Shown here: positions 8,106 through 40,829 of the stretch, in pieces | Layout: each line of letters begins with the position of its first letter | Numbering within the stretch: position 1 is the first letter of the stretch | IMG/VR virus record: IMGVR_UViG_2585427763_000002 | DNA: 42,068 nt | Source: a virus | Taxonomy: Duplodnaviria > Heunggongvirae > Uroviricota > Caudoviricetes | Strand: one strand, 5' to 3' | Notes under the pieces: model-generated | Databases searched by the model: none | Seen by the model: only the letters and a program-made list of their open reading frames with translations | What the model was told of the DNA's origin: nothing | Program-made: the position numbers and the translations under genes

Positions 8106-8261
8106 TCAACACCCCACATGTTTGTTACCCAGGATAGTTTTTTCGTACCGTTGACAAGATTCAGACCACATAAACTGACTTCCATGCGGGCGAGTTTCGA
8201 TATCTGTTATCTCTCCCGGCCGAACAAAACTGGTATTCGACTTCGTTATTTTTACTTTCAT
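8106..8261 (-). CDS. Small hypothetical ORF
   Basis: 51-aa ORF (MKVKITKSNTSFVRPGEITD...) whose ATG overlaps stop of the 8261-8518 gene (TAATG); below ORF-track size cutoff. Confidence 0.3.
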   Translation of the reverse strand: MKVKITKSNTSFVRPGEITDIETRPHGSQFMWSESCQRYEKTILGNKHVGC

Positions 8262-8518
8262 TACTCATCCCCAAGAGCTTTGCTGATTGCTGACTGTGCT
8301 TTCGATACTTCATCAGGATAATGGTCATTCCAGCTTTGCTTGTATGCCTTGTTTAGCATCGCTTGCAGAGCTTCAAGCAAATCAGGAGCTGCCTCCATCA
8401 ATCTCAAATCACCACGATGTATGGTTGTATCGTCAAACGTGACATAAACACCATCATCGTTGAATCCAGTGCCAACAACACTCCACGGCCTTTTCATTCT
8501 TTCTACGGTCATATTCAC
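8261..8518 (-). CDS. Hypothetical protein
   Basis: 85-aa ORF with RBS GAGGTGA 5 nt upstream. Confidence 0.5.
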   Translation of the reverse strand: MNMTVERMKRPWSVVGTGFNDDGVYVTFDDTTIHRGDLRLMEAAPDLLEALQAMLNKAYKQSWNDHYPDEVSKAQSAISKALGDE

Positions 8519-8564
8519 CTCTGTTGTTTATGCCAAAAATAAAGGCCGACTATGCGGCCTGAAA

Positions 8565-8987
8565 TTAATTAACCAATGATGCTGCATATTCAATTAGGAA
8601 TAACTTAGGTGCAAGCCAAATCTTCAACCATTCGAAATTGAAGGCAATAATTAAAACGCCAATAATTGAGCCAAATATAGGAGCAAATACAGTGCATATA
8701 TCGTAATAAAACGAAGATATAAAATATCCATCATTTGGACATCCATCGAAAGACGTCCATCTCTCGCCATTATTTCTTGCCGTTCTTGCAAAACTAGGAA
8801 GTTTCATTGCTGCAATTAAAAGCAACAACCCAGTCACTTGGAAAAGTGCGCTATGGACAAAACTCCATATTAGCAACTGACGAACAACATCAGGAATCTG
8901 TGACTGGCTAAATGAAACAGCCGCATCTATTCCATTACTGGCTTTTTGCAGTAGTTCTACGAGAATCTTGTTCGCTTGTTCTTCCAT
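8565..8987 (-). CDS. Membrane protein in the sieB position (candidate superinfection-exclusion protein)
   Basis: 140 aa with several hydrophobic helices; located between N and cIII where lambda/P22 carry sieB; RBS GAGGTGA. Confidence 0.5.
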   Translation of the reverse strand: MEEQANKILVELLQKASNGIDAAVSFSQSQIPDVVRQLLIWSFVHSALFQVTGLLLLIAAMKLPSFARTARNNGERWTSFDGCPNDGYFISSFYYDICTVFAPIFGSIIGVLIIAFNFEWLKIWLAPKLFLIEYAASLVN

Positions 8988-8995
8988 ATATCACC

Positions 8996-9322
8996 TCAAA
9001 TAAGTGGTTTGCTGCCTAATTTCATTTTCTGGCGACCAACACATGTCACACCCATTTCACTGCGTGGCTTGCTGTACCATGTGCGCTGATTCTTGCGCTC
9101 AATACGCTGCAGGTTGCTTTCAATCTGTTCGTGGTATTCAGCCAGCACCGTAAGGTCTATCGGATTCAGTGCGCTTTCTACTCGTGATTTCGGTTTGCGA
9201 TTCAGCGAGAGAATAGGGCGGTTAACTGGTTTTGCGCTTACCCCAACCAACAGGGGATTTGCTGCTTTCCATTGAGCCTGTTTCTCTGCGCGACGTTCGC
9301 GGCGGCGTGTTTGTGCATCCAT
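8996..9322 (-). CDS. N: Antitermination protein N, lambda type
   Basis: MDAQTRRRERRAEKQAQWKAANPLLVGVSAKPVNRPILSLNRKPKSRVESALNPIDLTVLAEYH... recalled as lambda N, including the arginine-rich boxB-binding motif. Confidence 0.9.
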   Translation of the reverse strand: MDAQTRRRERRAEKQAQWKAANPLLVGVSAKPVNRPILSLNRKPKSRVESALNPIDLTVLAEYHEQIESNLQRIERKNQRTWYSKPRSEMGVTCVGRQKMKLGSKPLI

Positions 9323-9494
9323 CTGGATTCTCCTGTCAGTTAGCTTTGGTGGTGTGGTAGGTGGGAGACCCATTTCGACCTGCTTCGGCCGACTTCAATT
9401 CGGCAATAGTTCCGCAGGCCTCGCCGCTTTACGTGCGACATATTCCCATCCATGAACCCTTCACCACACCCCAAAGCCTTCTGCTTTGAATGCT

Positions 9495-9525
9495 GCCCTT
9501 CTTCAGGGCTTAATTTTTAAGAGCG
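9495..9525 (-). promoter_or_regulatory. nutL: nutL (boxB GCCCTGAAGAAGGGC and boxA CGCTCTTA on the minus strand)
   Basis: Exact lambda nutL boxB/boxA sequences read on the reverse complement, upstream of N. Confidence 0.85.
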
Positions 9526-9529
9526 TCAC

Positions 9530-9655
9530 CTTCATGGTGGTCAGTGCGTCCTGCTGATGGCTAAATAGTACGATTTGTACTTTATCAAGTCAATACAAAA
9601 TGTTCTAACTATAATTAGTTTTTTATAACGCTTTGTATTTAATGGGTTTATATTT
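9530..9655 (-). promoter_or_regulatory. pL promoter / OL operator region
   Basis: AT-rich interval between repressor gene end and nutL containing inverted repeat ATACAAAATG...CTTTGTAT; exact operator and -10/-35 not resolved by eye. Confidence 0.45.
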
Positions 9656-9688
9656 TGGAAAAAGAAAACCCGACGCTAAGGTCGGGTT
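9655..9688 (-). terminator. Rho-independent terminator downstream of repressor gene
   Basis: Hairpin AACCCGAC-GCTAAG-GTCGGGTT followed on minus strand by TTTTCTTTTT. Confidence 0.5.
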
Positions 9689-9718
9689 ATTGTTGTGTGT
9701 TTTAGAGTTGTGAGGCTG

Positions 9719-10378
9719 TTAACTAAATGTCTCTTCAGGCCACTGGCTGGCGATAACTTTCCCTACTACGGAACAGCTATCATTGCATGGAATCATTGGA
9801 TATTGCGGGTTTAGTGGCTGTAGGAACACCTGACCGCTATCCCTGATCAGTTTCTTGAAGGTAAACTCGTCACCACCAAGTCTGGCTATGCAGAAATCAC
9901 CTGGCTCAACAGCCTGCTCAGGGTCAACGAGAATTAACATCCCGTCAGGAAAGCTTGGCTTGGATCCTGTTGGCGCGGTCATGGAATTACCTTCAACTTC
10001 AAGCCAGAACGCACAATCACTGGCTTTTTTGGTTGTGCTGACCCATCTCTCCGCATCACCTTTGGTAAAGGTTCTAAGCTCAGGCGAGAACATCCCGGCC
10101 TGAACATGAGAAAAAACAGGGTACTCATATTGTTTTTTTAACGGGGCAGATGAGTATTCGCCAACAGGTGAAAATGTACCGTCGTGGTTGAATGAGACGT
10201 TATCAATACCAAGGTATTTAAACACCACACCAATCTCGTCAAGAGATGGATGACGAGATCCGCGCAACCAGTGACCAATTCCACCCTGCGTCATACCAAG
10301 CTCTTCAGCTAACTTCTCTTGAGTTATGCCGAGTTCTTTCATTCTGGATCTAGCCAGTTCATACCATTTCATTTTCAT
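9719..10378 (-). CDS. cI: CI-type immunity repressor (HTH domain + S24 LexA-like autopeptidase domain); hybrid with lambda-like C-terminal domain
   Basis: C-terminal ~140 aa ([35 protein letters not shown]...[24 protein letters not shown]...) recalled as near-identical to lambda CI; N-terminal HTH differs (start chosen at [17 protein letters not shown]; 10453 ORF start unlikely). Confidence 0.85.
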
Positions 10379-10489
10379 ATCCTTATTATTACGCTCTGTA
10401 CTAAAACCATCCATGCACAAGATGTATTTTTTGTTTGCATTCCAAAAGTACATATCGTATTATTGTTTCATGGTTACTATGGAGGGCAT
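10379..10489. promoter_or_regulatory. OR operator region with divergent pRM/pR promoters
   Basis: 111-bp AT-rich divergent interval between cI and cro starts; operator half-sites not confidently resolved. Confidence 0.55.
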
Positions 10490-10705
10490 ATGAGCAACCT
10501 ACGAAAATATCGAGAGTCACTGAATATCTCTCAAACAACACTTGCTAAGGCGGTTGGATGCACACAGGGAGCTATCGGACATTGGGAATCTGGTCGTCGC
10601 TTCCCAGACCTTAAAACATGCCGTGCTCTTGTTGCGTGCCTAAACAAGTTAGGCGCAAAAGTCAGTCTTGATGACGTGTTCCCACCGGAACACAAAGCCG
10701 CTTAA
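10490..10705 (+). CDS. cro: Cro-like repressor (XRE-family HTH)
   Basis: 71 aa from ATG at 10490 preceded by GGAGGG; helix-turn-helix ISQTTLAKAVGCTQGAIGHWESG; divergent from cI. Confidence 0.75.
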   Translation: MSNLRKYRESLNISQTTLAKAVGCTQGAIGHWESGRRFPDLKTCRALVACLNKLGAKVSLDDVFPPEHKAA

Positions 10706-10713
10706 GACATTCC

Positions 10714-10745
10714 CGCTCTTACACATCCCAGCCCTGAAAAAGGGC
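10714..10745 (+). promoter_or_regulatory. nutR: nutR (boxA CGCTCTTA, boxB GCCCTGAAAAAGGGC)
   Basis: Exact lambda nutR boxA/boxB sequences immediately downstream of cro. Confidence 0.88.
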
Positions 10746-10821
10746 ATTACCAGAAACAAATCTCTATGGTTTTGCGTTTCTTTGCGAAGCCAACTCTATC
10801 TAATCATTAAGGAAATTATCT

Positions 10822-11103
10822 ATGGGTACTATTGCAACTAAAAGCAAGAAAGCGGCTCGCATCGAGTCAGCCTTGCTGAACAAACTGGCACTGATTGGGC
10901 AGAAGACATTCGCTCGCGCGATGGGGGTTCCTGAATACCAGGTAAGCCGATGGAAGAATGGTTTCTTCTCGCAGGTAAGCATGATGCTGGCTGTTCTGGA
11001 ATACGGAATCGAAGACGATGAAATGGCTGAATTGACTAAGCGGCTTGCCGATTACCTGACAAAAGAAAAAGCCCCGAAGAACGGCGAATTCTTCGAGGCC
11101 TGA
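10822..11103 (+). CDS. cII: CII transcriptional activator
   Basis: 93 aa; RIESALLNKLALIG...SRWK...FSMMLAVLEYG... resembles lambda CII; RBS AAGGA. Confidence 0.85.
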   Translation: MGTIATKSKKAARIESALLNKLALIGQKTFARAMGVPEYQVSRWKNGFFSQVSMMLAVLEYGIEDDEMAELTKRLADYLTKEKAPKNGEFFEA

Positions 11104-11137
11104 TGTAGAAAGACTGGATCAATCAACAGGAGTCATT

Positions 11138-11983
11138 ATGACAAATACAGCAAAAATACTCAACTTCGGCAGAGGTAACTTTGCCGAACAGGAGCTAAGA
11201 GTGGCTGATATCGATGATGGTTACACCAGATTCGCTAACGAGCTGCTGGAAGCTATCGCAAGTGCCGATTTAACCGCTCGCCAGTTGAAAGTTATGCTGG
11301 CCTACGTCCGGAAAACATATGGCTTCAATAAGAAAACAGATCGAATAGCCGATGAGCAAATTGCTCAGTTAACAGGACTGTCAAGGCAGAATGTTAACAA
11401 GGCTAAAAAAGAACTGATTTCAATGAATTGCCTGTTTATGGATGGAAATAAAATCGGTGTAAATAGGGAGGTATCTGCGTGGCAATTCAGCAAGTGTCTC
11501 CAAGTTAGCAACTTTGTCTCGAAGTTAGAGACAAAAAATGTCTCCAAATTAGAGACACTCAATGTCTCGAAGTTAGAGACACACAAAAGACATTCTTTAA
11601 AGACAAAAGAAAATATTAATAAACCCCCTATATCCCCCAAAAAAGTTTCTCAGAAGTTCGACCCGCTAGAAACAGAGTTGCCTGATTGGTTATCAGCAGA
11701 AACATGGTTGTCGTGGGTTACCTATCGCAAGGAGATAGGTAAGTCGATCAAGTCTAAGCAAAGTGTCACTCAGGCTATCAACGTTCTAAGCAGAAGCCTG
11801 GAGAAGGGATATACACCTGAAGAAATTATAAACCAGAGCATCGCCAGTGGTTGGCAGGGGATTTTTGAACCCAAGACTCCAAAGGGGAAATCTCAACCGA
11901 GGCCGCAGCAGCGAGCTATGCAGGAAAACTTTGCCGCCAAAGATTACGGGCAAACTGAAATGCCTTCATGGGCGCAGGAGTGA
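11138..11983 (+). CDS. O: Replication initiator O, lambda type
   Basis: 281 aa; N-terminus MTNTAKILNFGRGNFA... as in lambda O; iterons embedded mid-gene. Confidence 0.9.
   Translation: MTNTAKILNFGRGNFAEQELRVADIDDGYTRFANELLEAIASADLTARQLKVMLAYVRKTYGFNKKTDRIADEQIAQLTGLSRQNVNKAKKELISMNCLFMDGNKIGVNREVSAWQFSKCLQVSNFVSKLETKNVSKLETLNVSKLETHKRHSLKTKENINKPPISPKKVSQKFDPLETELPDWLSAETWLSWVTYRKEIGKSIKSKQSVTQAINVLSRSLEKGYTPEEIINQSIASGWQGIFEPKTPKGKSQPRPQQRAMQENFAAKDYGQTEMPSWAQE
11495..11581 (+). repeat. ori: Replication origin iterons (four ~19-bp direct repeats TGTCTC(C/G)AA(G/A)TTAGAGACA) followed by AT-rich stretch
   Basis: Repeats start near 11495, 11516, 11539 and 11563, then AAAAGACATTCTTTAAAGACAAAAGAAAATATTAATAAA; inside O as in ori-lambda. 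Confidence 0.8.
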
Positions 11984-11985
11984 AT

Positions 11986-12879
11986 ATGAATACGACAAAT
12001 GGTTACAATCTGGCACTGCAAAGGCAACTTGTAGACTCAAAAATCAATGACATTTCTGATCTGAAACAGAAACTTGAGTTTAGCAAAATTGGATCAGCAT
12101 CAGATGGAATGTCAGTTACCAGCACAGTGGAAGAGTGCGAGAAACACGGTAAATATACTTCCTATGAGAAATATCTGACCATCTCAGGAAAAAGAATTAC
12201 TTCAAGTAAATCTGAGTGCCCACAGTGCCTTGAGGAGAAAATTCGTAAGAAAGAGATTGAACGTGAGCAGGCAGAACAAAGAGCAAGACAATCAAAAATT
12301 GAATATTTGTTGAATTCTCTCAATATTCCAGAGAGGTTCAAAAATTGCACTCTTCAGAATTATGAGCCTGTTAACGATGATGCAAAGCGAGTTCTTAAGG
12401 TTTGCCAGGCATATGCCAGTAAGTGGCCTGAACGCCTTCAAAAAGGTGGCGGACTGGTCATGTGTGGTAAGCCTGGAACTGGAAAGAACCACCTTGCACT
12501 GGCTATCGCTAGGCACGCCATTATCGAGCATCAAAGCTCTGTGATATTTACCACTGCGTTGAAAATTGCCAGAGAGTACAAATCAACATGGTCTAAGGCC
12601 GCAACCAGAACTGAAGAAGAAGTCATTAGGCAATTTACGCATCCTGACTTGTTAATAATCGATGAGGTTGGCGTGCAGTTCGGCAGTGATGCTGAAAAGC
12701 TAATCATGTTCGAAATTATCAACACCAGATATGAATACATGAAGCCAACAATCCTGATTAGTAATCAGAGCAAAGATGAACTTTCGGCATTCATTGGTGA
12801 GCGTGTTATTGACAGGATGAATGATGGCGGAGGGTGCACTCTTGCGTTTACATGGGATAGTTACAGGAGCAGATCGTGA
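11986..12879 (+). CDS. DnaC-type helicase loader (IstB-like AAA+ ATPase), functional analogue of lambda P
   Basis: Walker A GKPGTGKNHLA, Walker B LLIIDEVG; start ATG 11986 after GGAG, 3 nt after O stop. Confidence 0.85.
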   Translation: MNTTNGYNLALQRQLVDSKINDISDLKQKLEFSKIGSASDGMSVTSTVEECEKHGKYTSYEKYLTISGKRITSSKSECPQCLEEKIRKKEIEREQAEQRARQSKIEYLLNSLNIPERFKNCTLQNYEPVNDDAKRVLKVCQAYASKWPERLQKGGGLVMCGKPGTGKNHLALAIARHAIIEHQSSVIFTTALKIAREYKSTWSKAATRTEEEVIRQFTHPDLLIIDEVGVQFGSDAEKLIMFEIINTRYEYMKPTILISNQSKDELSAFIGERVIDRMNDGGGCTLAFTWDSYRSRS

Positions 12880-13166
12880 CTGGAAAAGAAATCATCCTGG
12901 AATATCTGAAAACTCATGAACAATTCTCCCCACATGAATTAGCTCTGATCACCGGAATACCAAATAACAGAATCGCTCAAGCAGCAAGGCATATGGTGAA
13001 ACAAGGGCATTTGAGTGTTGTTGAGCGTAAGTGGAAGACGGTTATTTATGCAAAGCGCAAAGTGAAGAAGGAGCCAATTAAAAGAAATCCAGATGGTACG
13101 GGGTGGGGATGTGCAAATCCAATGACGGCGTTTATTAATAGGGCGCTTATGGAGGTAAGGCAATGA
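12876..13166 (+). CDS. Hypothetical protein
   Basis: 96-aa ORF with GTG start overlapping helicase-loader stop (GTGA). Confidence 0.45.
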   Translation: MTGKEIILEYLKTHEQFSPHELALITGIPNNRIAQAARHMVKQGHLSVVERKWKTVIYAKRKVKKEPIKRNPDGTGWGCANPMTAFINRALMEVRQ

Positions 13167-13191
13167 CCATCTACATCACTGATCTGATAGC

Positions 13192-13223
13192 AGGCCTGCT
13201 GGTAATCGCAGGCCTTTTTATTT
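13192..13223 (+). terminator. Putative rho-independent terminator
   Basis: Hairpin AGGCCTGC-TGGTAATC-GCAGGCCT followed by TTTTATTT. Confidence 0.5.
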
Positions 13224-13234
13224 GGGGGGGGGGG
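13224..13234. repeat. Homopolymeric G tract (11 G)
   Basis: GGGGGGGGGGG read directly, between the terminator hairpin and the RBS (GGAGG) of the next ORF. Confidence 0.9.
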
Positions 13235-13252
13235 AATTGGAGGCTTTAAGAA

Positions 13253-13468
13253 ATGAGTACGATAGCTGAGCTTGTCAGGGCTAATTTTCGTGAAGAGTTG
13301 GTGCGTTGGTATCGGTATCGTTCATCGTCCAGTTTGCCGATTGATGAGTTGTATGAGCATTCACCTGCTGCACGACGCTATCCGCGTGACCGTGTTCTTC
13401 GACGGTTGTTCAAACTCAACAATGAGTTTCAGCGCAACAGAATAATCCGGAGTCTGGATTTAAAGTAA
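13253..13468 (+). CDS. Hypothetical small protein
   Basis: 71-aa ORF preceded by GGAGG. Confidence 0.5.
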   Translation: MSTIAELVRANFREELVRWYRYRSSSSLPIDELYEHSPAARRYPRDRVLRRLFKLNNEFQRNRIIRSLDLK

Positions 13469-13478
13469 AGGAGTGAGC

Positions 13479-13634
13479 ATGACAAATCAGCAGCAAATAG
13501 AGTTCATCCTTGAGCAGATTCGAAAAATGCGAGAAAAGAACCAGCCAGACATGATGGAACTATGGAGACGGCAGCGGGAAGAATGGCACAGGCATATTTT
13601 GGGTGAGAGAAAATGGGATGGATGGAGCCTATAA
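13479..13634 (+). CDS. Hypothetical small protein
   Basis: 51-aa ORF (MTNQQQIEFILEQIRKMREKNQPDMMELWRRQREEWHRHILGERKWDGWSL) with RBS AAGGAG; below ORF-track cutoff. Confidence 0.4.
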   Translation: MTNQQQIEFILEQIRKMREKNQPDMMELWRRQREEWHRHILGERKWDGWSL

Positions 13635-13666
13635 AATGGCGTGGCGTTTTGTTAGTTGAGGTGACA

Positions 13667-14134
13667 ATGAAGCAAATATACATGCTTCGCAACGAAGCAA
13701 TCAGAAACAACGCCATAGACGCAATACTCTCACTTCCGATCGACGACAAGTCACCTCACGAAGTCCACATTAAAGAACCAAAGCGGAGCAATCCTCAAAA
13801 CCGCCTTATGTGGGCGTTATTGCAGGACGTATCACGTCAGGTGCTTTGGCATGGAAAGAGACTTGCGCCGGAGGACTGGAAAGATCTGTTCACTGCCCTG
13901 TGGCTTAAGACCAAAAAACTGGAGCAACGAAGTGCGCCTGGTATCGACGGTGGCGTTGTTATGCTTGGTGTGCGTACCAGCAAAATGCGAAAGGCCAGCA
14001 TGACTGAGCTTATCGAAATCATGTTTTGGTTCGGCTCAGAGCGCAACGTGCGGTGGAGTGATGACTCCCGGCGAGAGTATGAATGGTCACAACGGAAAGG
14101 TAACACGGACAATATGCGAGGGTTGAATGATTAA
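13667..14134 (+). CDS. ninB: NinB (Orf-family recombination mediator)
   Basis: Start ATG 13667 after GAGGTGA; ...NPQNRLMWALLQDVSRQVLWHGKRL...WSD... resembles lambda NinB. Confidence 0.8.
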   Translation: MKQIYMLRNEAIRNNAIDAILSLPIDDKSPHEVHIKEPKRSNPQNRLMWALLQDVSRQVLWHGKRLAPEDWKDLFTALWLKTKKLEQRSAPGIDGGVVMLGVRTSKMRKASMTELIEIMFWFGSERNVRWSDDSRREYEWSQRKGNTDNMRGLND

Positions 14135-14657
14135 GCATAAATCAGAAACACCAAAAGAAGTTAGAGACTGCTGGCAAACGCCGCTTTGGCTTTTTGATGC
14201 ACTGGATATTGAGTTTGGATTCTGGCTGGATTCGGCAGCGAGCGACAAAAATGCTCTGTGTGCTCACTGGCTAACTGAGTCCGACGACGCGCTCAATTCT
14301 GAGTGGATAAGCTACGGTGCAATCTGGAATAACCCACCGTACAGCAATATCAGACCGTGGGTGGAAAAAGCCGCTGAGCAGTGCATACAACAGCGACAGA
14401 CGGTAGTTATGCTTGTGCCAGAGGATATGTCAGTCGGATGGTTCAGCAAGGCTCTGGAGAGTGTCGACGAAGTTCGCATTATCACTGATGGACGGATTAA
14501 TTTTATCGAACCATCGACAGGGTTGGAGAAGAAGGGAAACAGCAAAGGCTCCATGCTGCTGATTTGGCGACCGTTCATCAGTCCTCGACGGATGTTTACT
14601 ACCGTATCCAAAGCGGCATTGATGGCGATCGGGCAGGGCGTCAGGAGGGCGGCATGA
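14127..14657 (+). CDS. Phage DNA N6-adenine methyltransferase (Dam-type)
   Basis: 176 aa with catalytic NPPY motif ([10 protein letters not shown]); overlaps ninB stop. Confidence 0.85.
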
Positions 14658-14830
14658 GGCGACAGCGACGAAGTTTCACCGACATCATCTGCGAAAACTG
14701 CAAATACCTTCCAACGAAACGCTCCAGAAATAAACGCAAGCCAATCCCAAAAGAATCTGACGTAAAAACCTTCAATTACACGGCTCACCTGTGGGATATC
14801 CGGTGGCTAAGACATCGTGCGAGGAAATGA
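14654..14830 (+). CDS. ninE: NinE
   Basis: 58 aa, [52 protein letters not shown]... recalled as lambda NinE; ATGA overlap with methyltransferase stop. Confidence 0.7.
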
Positions 14831-15192
14831 CAATGGATTATTCACAGTTAAGTGATTTTGAAATTAACGTGGCGGTATTCGAAGCCATTCATAACGGATC
14901 ACCGGATTACAAAGAAGGTGAGAATGGCGCGATGGTGTTTATCTCATTTGAGGGAGACATTGTAAACGGAGACGCAGTTGAAGTAGAAGTTGAGCGCGGA
15001 TCCTTTAACCCATGCGCAAACCCAGCAGACGCATGGCCGATTATTGAAAAATACAGGATTAGCATTATCAATCTCGATGAAGACGAGTGGGGTGCACGCG
15101 GTGTGGCCTACTGTAAATCTAAGCGAGCTATACATGAAAATCCCCTCCGCGCCGCCATGATTGTCTTTCTCATGATGCAGAGAATCCAATAA
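14827..15192 (+). CDS. Hypothetical nin-region protein (NinX/DUF2591-like?)
   Basis: ~121 aa from ATG 14827 (or 14833); family from memory only. Confidence 0.5.
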
Positions 15193-15368
15193 TGCTTAGC
15201 CCATCCCAATCCATTCAATACCAGAAAGAAAGCGTCGAGCGAGCTTTAACGTGCGCTAACTGCGGTCAGAAGCTGCATGTGCTGGAAGTTCACGTGTGCT
15301 CAGATTGCTGCGCAGAACTGATGAGCGATCCGAATAGCTCAATGTACGAGGAAGAAGACGATGAATGA
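15192..15368 (+). CDS. ninF: NinF (Cys-rich small protein)
   Basis: 58 aa, [58 protein letters not shown] recalled as lambda NinF; TAATG coupling; not in ORF track (<60 aa). Confidence 0.65.
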   Translation: MLSPSQSIQYQKESVERALTCANCGQKLHVLEVHVCSDCCAELMSDPNSSMYEEEDDE

Positions 15369-16083
15369 GTTAATAAATGGCAATGCTATCAAAATGACAA
15401 GCATTGAAATCGCTGAGTTGGTGGGTAAGCGTCAAGACAATGTGAAACGTACCATCGAAACGCTGGCTAAAAATGGTGTTATCCGGCTTCCTCAAATTGA
15501 GGTTTCCGAAAGAATCAATAACTTAGGGTTCAATGTTCAGTACGAGCATTACGTCTTCGAAGGCGAACAAGGTAAGCGAGACAGTATTGTCGTTGTTGCC
15601 CAGTTGTCGCCGGAATTCACCGCTCGTCTTGTTGACCGTTGGCGAGAGCTTGAGGAAACTGCGGTTAATATCCCCAAAACGCTACCAGAAGCGTTGCGCC
15701 TTGCTGCTGATCTTGCTGAGCAGAAAATGCAACTGGAAAACCAGCTCGCAATTGCCGCACCTAAAGTTGAGTTTGCCGATCGCGTTGGCGAGGCCAGCGG
15801 AATTTTGATTGGAAACTTTGCAAAGGTTGTCGGTATTGGTCCAAACAAACTGTTTGCGTGGATGCGTGATCACAAAATCCTTATTGCTTCAGGTTCCCGG
15901 CGCAATGTGCCAATGCAGGAATATATGGATCGCGGCTATTTCACAGTGAAAGAAACAGCGGTCAACACAAATCACGGAATACAGATATCGTTCACCACAA
16001 AAATCACCGGGCGTGGTCAACAGTGGCTGACCAGAAAGCTGCTCGATAACGGAATGCTGAAAGTAACAGGGGAGGCTGCTTAA
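15361..16083 (+). CDS. Roi/Rha-like DNA-binding protein with KilA-C-type antirepressor domain
   Basis: 240 aa; position between ninF and ybcO-like/rusA as for roi of HK022-like phages. Confidence 0.65.
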   Translation: MNELINGNAIKMTSIEIAELVGKRQDNVKRTIETLAKNGVIRLPQIEVSERINNLGFNVQYEHYVFEGEQGKRDSIVVVAQLSPEFTARLVDRWRELEETAVNIPKTLPEALRLAADLAEQKMQLENQLAIAAPKVEFADRVGEASGILIGNFAKVVGIGPNKLFAWMRDHKILIASGSRRNVPMQEYMDRGYFTVKETAVNTNHGIQISFTTKITGRGQQWLTRKLLDNGMLKVTGEAA

Positions 16084-16373
16084 TGGCTAACCTACGCAAA
16101 GAAGCGCGCAACAGAGAATGCCAGGTACGTATTTACGGCGTATGCAATGGCAATCCTGAAACTACAGTTCTGGCACATTACCGGATGGCTGGAATTTGCG
16201 GAACGGGAATGAAACCTGACGACCTGATCGGCGCATGGGCTTGTAGTGACTGCCACGCGGAGATCGACCGACGCACAAGGATTCTCGACAACAAAGACGC
16301 CAGACTTTACCACCTCGAAGGCGTGATAAGGACGCAGGCGATACTGCTGAAGGAGGGGAAGATTAAGCCATGA
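16083..16373 (+). CDS. YbcO-like (DUF1364) putative nuclease
   Basis: 96 aa with conserved Cys/His pattern (RECQVRIYGVCNGNPETTVLAHYR...CSDCHAEID) recalled from DLP12 YbcO. Confidence 0.7.
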   Translation: MANLRKEARNRECQVRIYGVCNGNPETTVLAHYRMAGICGTGMKPDDLIGAWACSDCHAEIDRRTRILDNKDARLYHLEGVIRTQAILLKEGKIKP

Positions 16374-16732
16374 ACGAATATCAGTTTGTGCTTCCATACC
16401 CGCCGTCGCTGAACACCTACTGGCGAAGACGGGGGAGTCAATACTACATCAGCGATAAAGGCCAGAAATACCGAAAAGACGTTCAGCAAATCATCCGCCA
16501 ACTTAAGTTAGACATTTTCACCAAATCACGACTCCGCATCAAAGTCATCGCAGACGTTCCAGACTCCCGCCGCCGCGACCTCGATAACATCCTGAAAGGT
16601 TTACTCGACTCCCTTATCCACGCCGGATTTGCGGAAGACGACGAGCAATTCGATGACATTCGCGTAATTCGTGGTGTGAAAGTACCAGGCGGACGGCTTG
16701 GAATAAAAATCACCGAACTGGAGAACGCATGA
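16370..16732 (+). CDS. rusA: RusA Holliday-junction resolvase
   Basis: 120 aa; PPSLNTYWRRRG...RRRDLDNILKGLLDSL...DD..F matches RusA family. Confidence 0.85.
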   Translation: MNEYQFVLPYPPSLNTYWRRRGSQYYISDKGQKYRKDVQQIIRQLKLDIFTKSRLRIKVIADVPDSRRRDLDNILKGLLDSLIHAGFAEDDEQFDDIRVIRGVKVPGGRLGIKITELENA

Positions 16733-16917
16733 ACGCCACAATTCAAACGATACCAGAGCTTCTTATCCAGACACGAGGCAATCAGACCGAAGTGGCAAGG
16801 ATGCTTTCCTGCGCAAGAGGAACAGTGCTCAAGTACAACCGAGACAGCAAAGGCGAGCGTCACGTAATAGTTAACGGCGTCCTGATGGTCAAACAGGGCA
16901 AGAGGGGAAGACGATGA
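16729..16917 (+). CDS. ninH: NinH-like protein
   Basis: 62 aa; ...GNQTEVARMLSCARGTVLKY... resembles lambda NinH HTH. Confidence 0.6.
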   Translation: MNATIQTIPELLIQTRGNQTEVARMLSCARGTVLKYNRDSKGERHVIVNGVLMVKQGKRGRR

Positions 16918-17402
16918 GCATAAGAGAATTAAACCTCACCAAAGAACAGCATGAGTGGCTGAATGGCTGGCTTGAACTGTGGGGCGCATGGGTTTATTCA
17001 GGTCGTCTGGAAAAGCGCATGAGCAGCGTAATAGCGAAGTTCATGGAGAGCGTAGACCCGGGAAGAGTTATGACAAGGCCAATGTGCAATGATGATGATG
17101 GAATGTTGATTTCTCAGGTCGTCGATTCCGTCATGTACATTGACAAGAAAGCCTTTGGCATCCTCCTCAGCTACTACGCCCATGGATCTTCCAAGCACGC
17201 CATTGCATCTTACTATCATCGCGTCGCAAGACCTCGCAAGATGTTATGCCGTGGCGGCGGGCGCATTCAAAAACCATCGCTCGCAACCTGTCGACGGGAA
17301 GTTGACGAAATCCTTAATGCCTCGTTGTTTATGATTTATCCGGTTCTGGATAGTGCGTTTAAAAACCGGAAACGTGTAGAGAAAATTAAACATGTAGCAT
17401 AG
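16914..17402 (+). CDS. Q: Late-gene antiterminator Q (non-lambda Q type, phage 82/21-like size class)
   Basis: 162 aa immediately upstream of a TTGACA promoter/terminator unit and the lysis cassette. Confidence 0.75.
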   Translation: MSIRELNLTKEQHEWLNGWLELWGAWVYSGRLEKRMSSVIAKFMESVDPGRVMTRPMCNDDDGMLISQVVDSVMYIDKKAFGILLSYYAHGSSKHAIASYYHRVARPRKMLCRGGGRIQKPSLATCRREVDEILNASLFMIYPVLDSAFKNRKRVEKIKHVA

Positions 17403-40352: not shown

Positions 40353-40829
40353 TTAACTAAACATCGCAGTAATCGAGGCACTCGCCAGAGAGTGAAAATG
40401 AACGTTAAACCCGACCATCGCGCCGCTGGCACCTTCATCGACATCAATACGTTCTACATCCAGCGCGTGAACGGTAAAAATGTAGCGATGGGTTTCGCCT
40501 TTCGGCGGCGCTGCGCCATCGTACCCGGTTTTACCAAAGTCGGTACGCGTCTGCAAAACGCCGTCTGGCATAGCTACCAGACCAGAGCCAAACCCTTGCG
40601 GTAATACGCGGGTATCAGCGGGTAAATTAACAACTACCCAGTGCCACCAGCCGGAGCCGGTTGGCGCATCCGGGTCATAGCAGGTGACAACAAAACTTTT
40701 CGTTCCCACAGGAACATCATCCCACGCCAGATGCGGTGAAATATTATCGCCATCGTAACCCATGCCGTTAAAGACATGACGATGCGGCAGCTTATCGCCA
40801 TCGCGCAGATCGTTACTGATGAGTTTCAT
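40353..40829 (-). CDS. ybhB: YbhB (PEBP/Raf-kinase-inhibitor-like protein); host gene right of attB-lambda
   Basis: 158 aa recalled as E. coli YbhB; adjacent to B' arm. Confidence 0.85.
   Translation of the reverse strand: MKLISNDLRDGDKLPHRHVFNGMGYDGDNISPHLAWDDVPVGTKSFVVTCYDPDAPTGSGWWHWVVVNLPADTRVLPQGFGSGLVAMPDGVLQTRTDFGKTGYDGAAPPKGETHRYIFTVHALDVERIDVDEGASGAMVGFNVHFHSLASASITAMFS

Follow-up and report, generated by a model that had tools for sequence, protein, structure and literature searches.

A G11 tract downstream of the tR2 terminator homologue of a lambdoid prophage is probably a rare, mutated allele of a conserved purine tract

Does an 11-nt run of G residues, placed between a transcription terminator and the ribosome binding site of a phage gene, constitute a genetic switch, a sequencing error, or a mutated version of an older sequence? 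This question is raised by IMG/VR record IMGVR_UViG_2585427763_000002, a 42,068-nt stretch of viral DNA (Caudoviricetes) that is referred to here, in its full length, as the window. The run is located at positions 13224-13234, exactly as reported in the initial annotation of this DNA, which had called an 11-nt poly-G tract. It is the sole G or C run of more than six nucleotides in the 42-kb window, and a pattern of eight consecutive G residues yields four overlapping matches when compared to 0.24 expected, with four attained in 1 of 100 shuffles. G11 is not a chance product of base composition: the ancestral tract at this site already contained nine G residues among its 11 positions, and the run is explained by ancestry rather than by chance. 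Downstream of the tract, AATT leads to GGAGG (13239-13243), which is separated by 9 nt from the ATG at 13253, in keeping with the earlier proposal that a GGAGG motif 4 nt past the run serves the ORF starting at this position. The features relevant for the following argument are, in their order along the window:

8996-9373, minus strand: lambda-type N antiterminator gene with an arginine-rich domain (Pfam N36, E = 2.1e-26)
9495-9509, minus strand: nutL boxB, an exact match to lambda (0 expected by chance)
10731-10745, plus strand: nutR boxB, GCCCTGAAAAAGGGC, an exact match to lambda (0 expected by chance)
12876-13166, plus strand: ren-like gene of 96 aa at the position of lambda ren (phrog_1687; phrog_142, Ren-like)
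13152-13156, plus strand: GGAGG, Shine-Dalgarno (SD)-like motif of the micro-ORF, 6 nt before its ATG (sequence)
13163-13249, plus strand: conserved micro-ORF of 28 aa, MTIYITDLIAGLLVIAGLFIWGGGNWRL (phrog_5907, E = 1.9e-14 over residues 1-25)
13192-13223, plus strand: intrinsic terminator, homologue of lambda tR2 (terminator scan, fold, and identity to lambda over CAGGCCTGCTGGTAATCGCAGGCCTTTTTATTT)
13224-13234, plus strand: G11 tract, GGGGGGGGGGG, putative allele of the conserved purine tract GGGGGAGAGGG (sequence)
13239-13243, plus strand: GGAGG, SD sequence of DUF7301, 9 nt before its ATG
13253-13468, plus strand: DUF7301 gene of 71 aa, function unknown (Pfam PF23975, E = 9.3e-26; phrog_1785, E = 2.6e-33)
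13613-14134, plus strand: ninB (Pfam NinB, E = 2.9e-48)
16914-17402, plus strand: Q antiterminator gene (Pfam Phage_antitermQ, E = 5.8e-25)

Gene order follows that of lambda (cII, O, a DnaC-like gene, the ren-like gene, the terminator, DUF7301, NinB and the remaining nin genes, and Q), and the window also encodes a cI-like repressor. By its gene content, the window is a lambdoid prophage with the mosaic structure typical of lambdoid genomes. The replication module consists of O and a DnaC-like loader, not lambda P, while N and both boxB elements are of the lambda type. The listed N ORF comprises 125 aa, and the lambda N sequence (MDAQTRRRERR...) starts at its residue 18. The Pfam match of NinB begins at residue 19 of the listed ORF, and the true start of ninB is therefore probably an internal ATG. 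The O-like protein (11138-11983) contains the tandem peptide repeat SKLETKNVSKLETLNVSKLET, which probably mirrors ori iterons located within the gene, as annotated in phage AU5Stx1. The TGA stop of the ren-like gene, which is annotated as Ren-like in Escherichia phage CurroJimenez_Bas106 (PQ850599; hereafter Bas106), overlaps the ATG of the micro-ORF. With respect to the ORF downstream of the tract, its earlier description as a small nin-region gene holds, as it encodes DUF7301 and is preceded by its own GGAGG. The junction and the DUF7301 start are annotated alike in Bas106, and in an annotated E. coli copy the DUF7301 start is unchanged, while the junction differs at only two bases.

The element preceding the G run is a hairpin at 13192-13215, composed of AGGCCTGC, the 8-nt loop TGGTAATC, and GCAGGCCT, with eight pairs of which six are G-C (terminator scan), and followed by the T-tract TTTTTATTT at 13215-13223. 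The hairpin folds with -15.7 kcal/mol (z = -3.6), a stability matched by 0 of 200 shuffles. In lambda (NC_001416), the region between ren and ninB reads ...CAGGCCTGCTGGTAATCGCAGGCCTTTTTATTTGGGGGAGAGGGAAGTCATG, with the same stem, loop, and T-tract as in the window (~40600-40630). A G+C-rich hairpin joined to a U-rich tract, homology to lambda tR2, and location in a pR operon equipped with N and nut sites thus coincide at this position. The hairpin and T-tract, which the initial annotation had interpreted as a terminator, can be assigned on this basis to the tR2 intrinsic terminator of phage lambda, a textbook structure that is already known and that is deleted by nin5 in lambda. Termination of E. 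coli RNA polymerase at this site and its override by N would carry over from the identity with the well-studied lambda element. Similar to lambda tR2, the terminator follows a ren-like gene, precedes the nin genes, and is accompanied by an N/nut system. In contrast to lambda, the T-tract leads into G11 rather than into the 11 nt of GGGGGAGAGGG, DUF7301 with an SD sequence of its own takes the place of ninB as the following gene, and four substitutions are present in the 30 nt before the hairpin. RNA release at lambda tR2 occurs at U7/U8 of the T-tract (bioRxiv 10.64898/2026.05.29.728758); these sites map to 13221/13222 in the window, and the G run starts 2-3 nt beyond.

To what sequence does the G run trace back? 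About 190 related loci were gathered from IMG/VR, public phages, NCBI genomes, and metagenomes, and with the terminator as anchor, the next bases were GGGGGAGAG(GG/TA...) in nearly all of them. The exact downstream junction AATTGGAGGCTTTAAGAAATGAGTAC is present in 48 other loci, and the tract is visible in 47 of these: 21 carry GGGGGAGAGGG (Bas106 included), 25 have 10-nt purine tracts, and only one contig, L124, has a homopolymer. In Bas106 and 20 other loci, GGGGGAGAGGG is followed by the junction AATTGGAGGCTTTAAGAAATG, so that these loci match the window in length and differ only at two A positions. Indeed, Bas106 is identical to the window from CAGGCC of the hairpin to the DUF7301 start outside the tract, which likewise comprises 11 nt, and the two are distinguished by the GGGGGAGAGGG tract of Bas106 and by an additional gene of 89 aa that this phage carries between ren and the micro-ORF. 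Prophages of E. coli also carry the Bas106-type tR2-DUF7301 junction. When compared to this state, the window has kept the ancestral length of 11 and has A-to-G changes at 13229 and 13231, both of which fall into a single micro-ORF codon (AGA to GGG, Arg23Gly). Transitional variants of the tract (GGGGGAGGG, GGGGAAGAG, and GAGGAAGAG) were found as well, with the intermediates GGGGGAGGG in at least nine loci and GGGGGAGGGGG in L030. In L188, G9 replaces GGGGGAGAG with the length unchanged; L125 and L187 have G9AGGG, two bases above the expected G7AGGG, and L126 has G7.

Long G runs are rare at this site. Seven or more G residues occur in only three IMG/VR contigs, compared to more than 120 contigs with the terminator among the matches listed, and in none of the GTDB representative genomes; eight or more are found in two metagenome contigs. 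The tR2 block is present in 1779 of 5426 complete E. coli genomes, roughly one in three, and none of the 5426 is more than 94% identical to the window allele over 116 nt. Exact-protein look-ups returned canonical tracts with the exception of two near-canonical ones (G6AGAGGG and GGTGGAGAGGG). Taken as a sequence comparison, these data indicate that G11 is a rare, mutated allele of a conserved purine tract. Of the two observations that the initial annotation had named as arguments against its switch hypothesis, namely a fixed length in the reads and the absence of such a tract from related genomes, the second half applies: the homopolymer is lacking in ~190 relatives.

We consider it likely that the G11 tract originated by a run-extension mutation of the tR2 purine tract and that the resulting run is prone to slippage, yet has no dedicated role as a switch. 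What the sequences show directly is which terminator this is, what the tract looked like before, how rare the allele is, and how the junction is laid out; we infer how the mutations arose, that the allele is nearly neutral, and that it has no effect as a switch. The terminator lies in the pR operon between the replication and ren genes and the nin region, where N-modified RNA polymerase would read through, with Q as the downstream target of read-through. In lambda, GGGGGAGAGGG acts as the SD sequence of ninB and also codes for the Gly-Arg-Gly tail of the terminator-spanning micro-ORF. Given that DUF7301 has its own GGAGG downstream of the tract, the tract no longer has this SD role in the window. 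Two A-to-G transitions in one codon (AGA to GGG) could then have produced a pure G run, the tract being homogenised stepwise by run-templated substitution involving transient misalignment. In mutation accumulation experiments with E. coli, base pairs next to mononucleotide runs are hot spots for substitutions, about half of the run-adjacent changes fit run-templated transient misalignment, and rates grow with run length, while indel rates rise exponentially with run length (bioRxiv 10.1101/346874). In the K-12 genome, runs of 9 nt number only 19 and a single run reaches 10 nt (bioRxiv 10.1101/346874), and G11 exceeds the longest of these. The tract would thus be unusually prone to slippage by plus or minus one base. 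Such slips would alter only the last 4-12 codons of the micro-ORF and the position of its stop; DUF7301 and the nin genes are not expected to be switched. Three points could be raised in opposition to our interpretation. First, the window has lost a nearly invariant Arg of the micro-ORF (see below). Second, repeated conversion to a G run in several lineages could mean selection and not mutation bias. Third, the G10 tract of L124, if real, would constitute length instability, which is expected for a selected contingency locus as well.

The latter point depends on how the only available sister sequence is judged. L124 (IMGVR_UViG_2585427752_000004) has 42067 bp, compared to 42068 bp for the window, and therefore represents the same prophage with the same cut ends. 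Over 8283 bp, L124 is 99.96% identical to window positions 8246-16529, and the differences amount to one gap (G10 vs G11) and two mismatches. In the sister, both mismatches turn TAC into TCC (Tyr to Ser). They affect NinE and RusA and lie at positions equivalent to 14706 and 16398 of the window, where A is found in all 141 and 28 homologous loci, respectively. These two substitutions probably stem from faulty base calls in the sister assembly. Since they resemble errors, the G10/G11 difference is weak evidence for biological length variation, and it may be an error, too. On the other hand, slippage is plausible on first principles and is suggested by +2 and +1 alleles elsewhere. The earlier statement that the run is slippage-prone holds for a homopolymer of this length, and one sister contig differs by exactly one G. 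A lineage-specific 30-mer matched only L124 in IMG/VR, exact-protein look-ups with the ren-like, DUF7301, and DnaC-like proteins gave only loci with canonical or near-canonical tracts, and neither search pattern matched the GTDB representative genomes. A one-base difference in a homopolymer was also seen between two related lambdoid contigs, at L043:4018 and L073:5897 (TTATTTA-C8-AATCTTCACAAG vs C9, flanks otherwise identical), a sequence that is absent from the window.

The initial annotation had also considered an assembly artefact, and we have taken this to mean that the deposited sequence gives either the composition of the tract or its exact length (10 or 11) incorrectly. As an account of the locus, this is unlikely, and its two components fare differently. 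A composition error is unlikely: the tract departs from its ancestor by two substitutions at constant length, unlike typical homopolymer indel errors, both assemblies agree that the tract contains no A, evolutionary intermediates exist, and G9 occurs at the site in contigs of independent origin, which represent other lineages and stem in part from ENA metagenome assemblies. A length error is quite possible. Homopolymers are the classic site of such errors, the sister differs by a single G, the TAC-to-TCC singletons imply that one assembly at least contains wrong base calls, and the two assemblies (42068 and 42067 bp) represent one prophage with identical cut ends. Whether the tract has 10 or 11 G residues is therefore uncertain, and the length given in the record should not be trusted without the reads.

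For a run of variable length to act on gene expression, it must be placed accordingly, and in this context the micro-ORF deserves consideration. The micro-ORF is the only reading frame that the G tract touches; it encloses this tract together with the T-tract and the tR2 hairpin, and the G residues extend from the second base of codon 21 to the end of codon 24. The ORF is conserved with 25-30 codons, and its lambda version matches phrog_5907 with E = 1.6e-19. In lambda, the micro-ORF is located at ~40567-40647 (NC_001416), encodes the hydrophobic peptide MTIYITELITGLLVIAGLFIWGRGKS, and is unannotated in the reference record. Phage AU5Stx1 annotates it as a 25-aa CDS, and the gene call of the JGI contig L191 has 30 aa. 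Among 24 DNA haplotypes, a sample of near-identical DNA, the variable sites at the three codon positions number 4/2/10, and Leu8 is encoded by five synonymous codons. The ATG of the micro-ORF overlaps the upstream stop codon (ATGA) in all 13 upstream variants, which represent ~6 distinct contexts, and an SD-like motif is located 5-11 nt upstream of the ATG in 12 of the 13; the exception is a two-locus variant with a GGAGG-to-GGAAG change. By these sequence properties, the micro-ORF behaves like a real gene, and we therefore treat it as a predicted one. Arg23 is nearly invariant among relatives with a full-length micro-ORF, and its loss in the window might matter if the peptide is functional. 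In 12 loci, including L127, L129, L133, L134, L139, and L149, the tract reads GAGGAAGAGT, which changes codon 21 from TGG to TGA and leaves 20 aa; the Trp-Gly-Arg-Gly tail is thus dispensable, or the ORF is weakly constrained there. Non-homopolymeric relatives share the ending of the G11 frame, NWRL-stop (28 loci), and that of the G10 frame, IGGFKK-stop with ATGA overlap (12 loci), which together with the 12 stops at codon 21 indicates that the tail of the micro-ORF tolerates change.

Slippage would shift the stop of the micro-ORF, and the consequences for each frame can be read from existing sequences. With G11, as in the window, the micro-ORF ends with TAA 3 nt before the DUF7301 ATG; with G10, as in L124, its TGA overlaps this ATG (ATGA); and in the third frame, represented by L184 and equivalent to G12 or G9, translation would proceed 15 nt into DUF7301 before reaching the stop. 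None of the three frames ends more than ~20 nt away from the start of DUF7301, and each would therefore deliver terminating ribosomes beside it. The G tract itself lies upstream of the DUF7301 SD sequence, and outside of both the SD-ATG spacer and the DUF7301 ORF. A role as promoter spacer was rejected, as there is no sigma-70-like site on either strand between 12500 and 14200, and so was an RNA switch: folds of 65-151 nt with either G11 or GGGGGAGAGGG gave the terminator hairpin only, with z-scores near 0. The tract is not crossed by any ORF of at least 30 aa on the minus strand, where the hairpin also lacks a T-run.

Phase variation at poly-G/C tracts is known from Neisseria, Haemophilus, Campylobacter, and Helicobacter, and the initial annotation had suggested that the tract could be a phase-variable switch on downstream expression. 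In its most explicit form, this would be a contingency element in which slippage shifts the micro-ORF stop and varies coupling into DUF7301 and the nin genes from cell to cell; we regard this as rather improbable. Similar to contingency loci, the tract is a homopolymer of at least ~8 nt, has a length in their range and beyond that of any K-12 run, and, as deposited, differs by one base between two near-identical genomes (G10 vs G11 in the 99.96%-identical sister). The gene-like character of the micro-ORF (phrog_5907, third-position bias, and ATGA overlap with an SD-like motif in ~6 contexts) and the frame consequences displayed by L124 and L184 would also be compatible with such an element. 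Contingency loci, however, are found in the regulated ORF or in its promoter or SD-ATG spacer, whereas this tract overlaps just the 3'-terminal part of the micro-ORF, ends before the SD sequence of DUF7301, and has no promoter-like site nearby on either strand. Further, the repeat is not maintained: ~190 relatives carry interrupted purine tracts and the complete E. coli genomes lack the homopolymer as well, which argues against a conserved design. Two defining properties, a suitable location with respect to the gene to be regulated and a repeat that is conserved, are thus missing, and an expression consequence is not evident. DUF7301 has a strong GGAGG of its own at optimal spacing, and given that every frame stops within ~20 nt, coupling would persist in all states. 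The only length difference stems from a contig whose two other differences look erroneous. Finally, mismatch repair is active in E. coli as a matter of general knowledge, and the host of the window is a mismatch-repair-proficient enterobacterium, which sets it apart from the classical examples. The proposed switch is unsupported by these data.

A related proposal combines the run with the terminator. Here, the phrog_5907 ORF would be translated through the tR2 hairpin, which would make the terminator sensitive to translation, and the G run would be a slippage hot spot that moves the micro-ORF stop stochastically, so that subpopulations differ in DUF7301/nin coupling. We consider this combination improbable; if true, subpopulations of lysogens or phages would differ in the translational coupling of DUF7301 and the nin region. 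The first part of it can be viewed separately from the G run. Translation near tR2 suppresses the terminator, and its efficiency in vivo drops from ~90% to <10% when ribosomes stop a few bases upstream (PMC4824070). The location of tR2 inside a translated-looking micro-ORF hints at a translation-sensitive terminator, and translation through the hairpin could modulate termination at tR2, which we offer as a lead and not as a result. Leader-peptide attenuators such as the trp leader are comparable in that a short ORF, here with predicted translation, overlaps an intrinsic terminator hairpin; unlike these, the window has neither an alternative antiterminator hairpin nor a regulatory codon run. 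The layout of short ORF and terminator is attenuator-like in a superficial sense. An Rfam match to Trp_leader (13117-13221) scored 19.6 bits against a gathering threshold of 41 (E = 0.47), and a snoRNA match was likewise sub-threshold (E = 0.58); both were taken as chance.

It is highly unlikely that the run tunes the terminator itself, with an all-G:C downstream duplex at +2 to +13 of the release sites altering pausing or release at tR2 and thereby the N-dependence of nin and Q: while release at 13221/13222 does place the run in the downstream duplex gripped by RNA polymerase, we have downgraded this option because lambda tR2 is classed as a hybrid-shearing and not a forward-translocation terminator (bioRxiv 10.1101/453969), the ancestral tract was already G:C at nine of 11 positions and the change in duplex stability hence is small, and the hairpin, U-tract, and GC/AU bubble-edge positions are unchanged. 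A large effect of the downstream duplex on termination efficiency is unlikely.

If run extension of the tR2 purine tract is the correct explanation, the poly-G tract itself matters little, being a rare and probably near-neutral allele. It would nevertheless illustrate nicely, in a natural sequence, the way in which run-templated substitutions can turn a purine tract with interruptions into a long homopolymer. The hairpin located within a conserved ORF that is coupled by ATGA to its upstream gene, preceded by an SD-like motif, and found in roughly one in three complete E. coli genomes may merit more attention than the G run, as the behaviour of a model terminator at its natural site could be affected by predicted translation across it.
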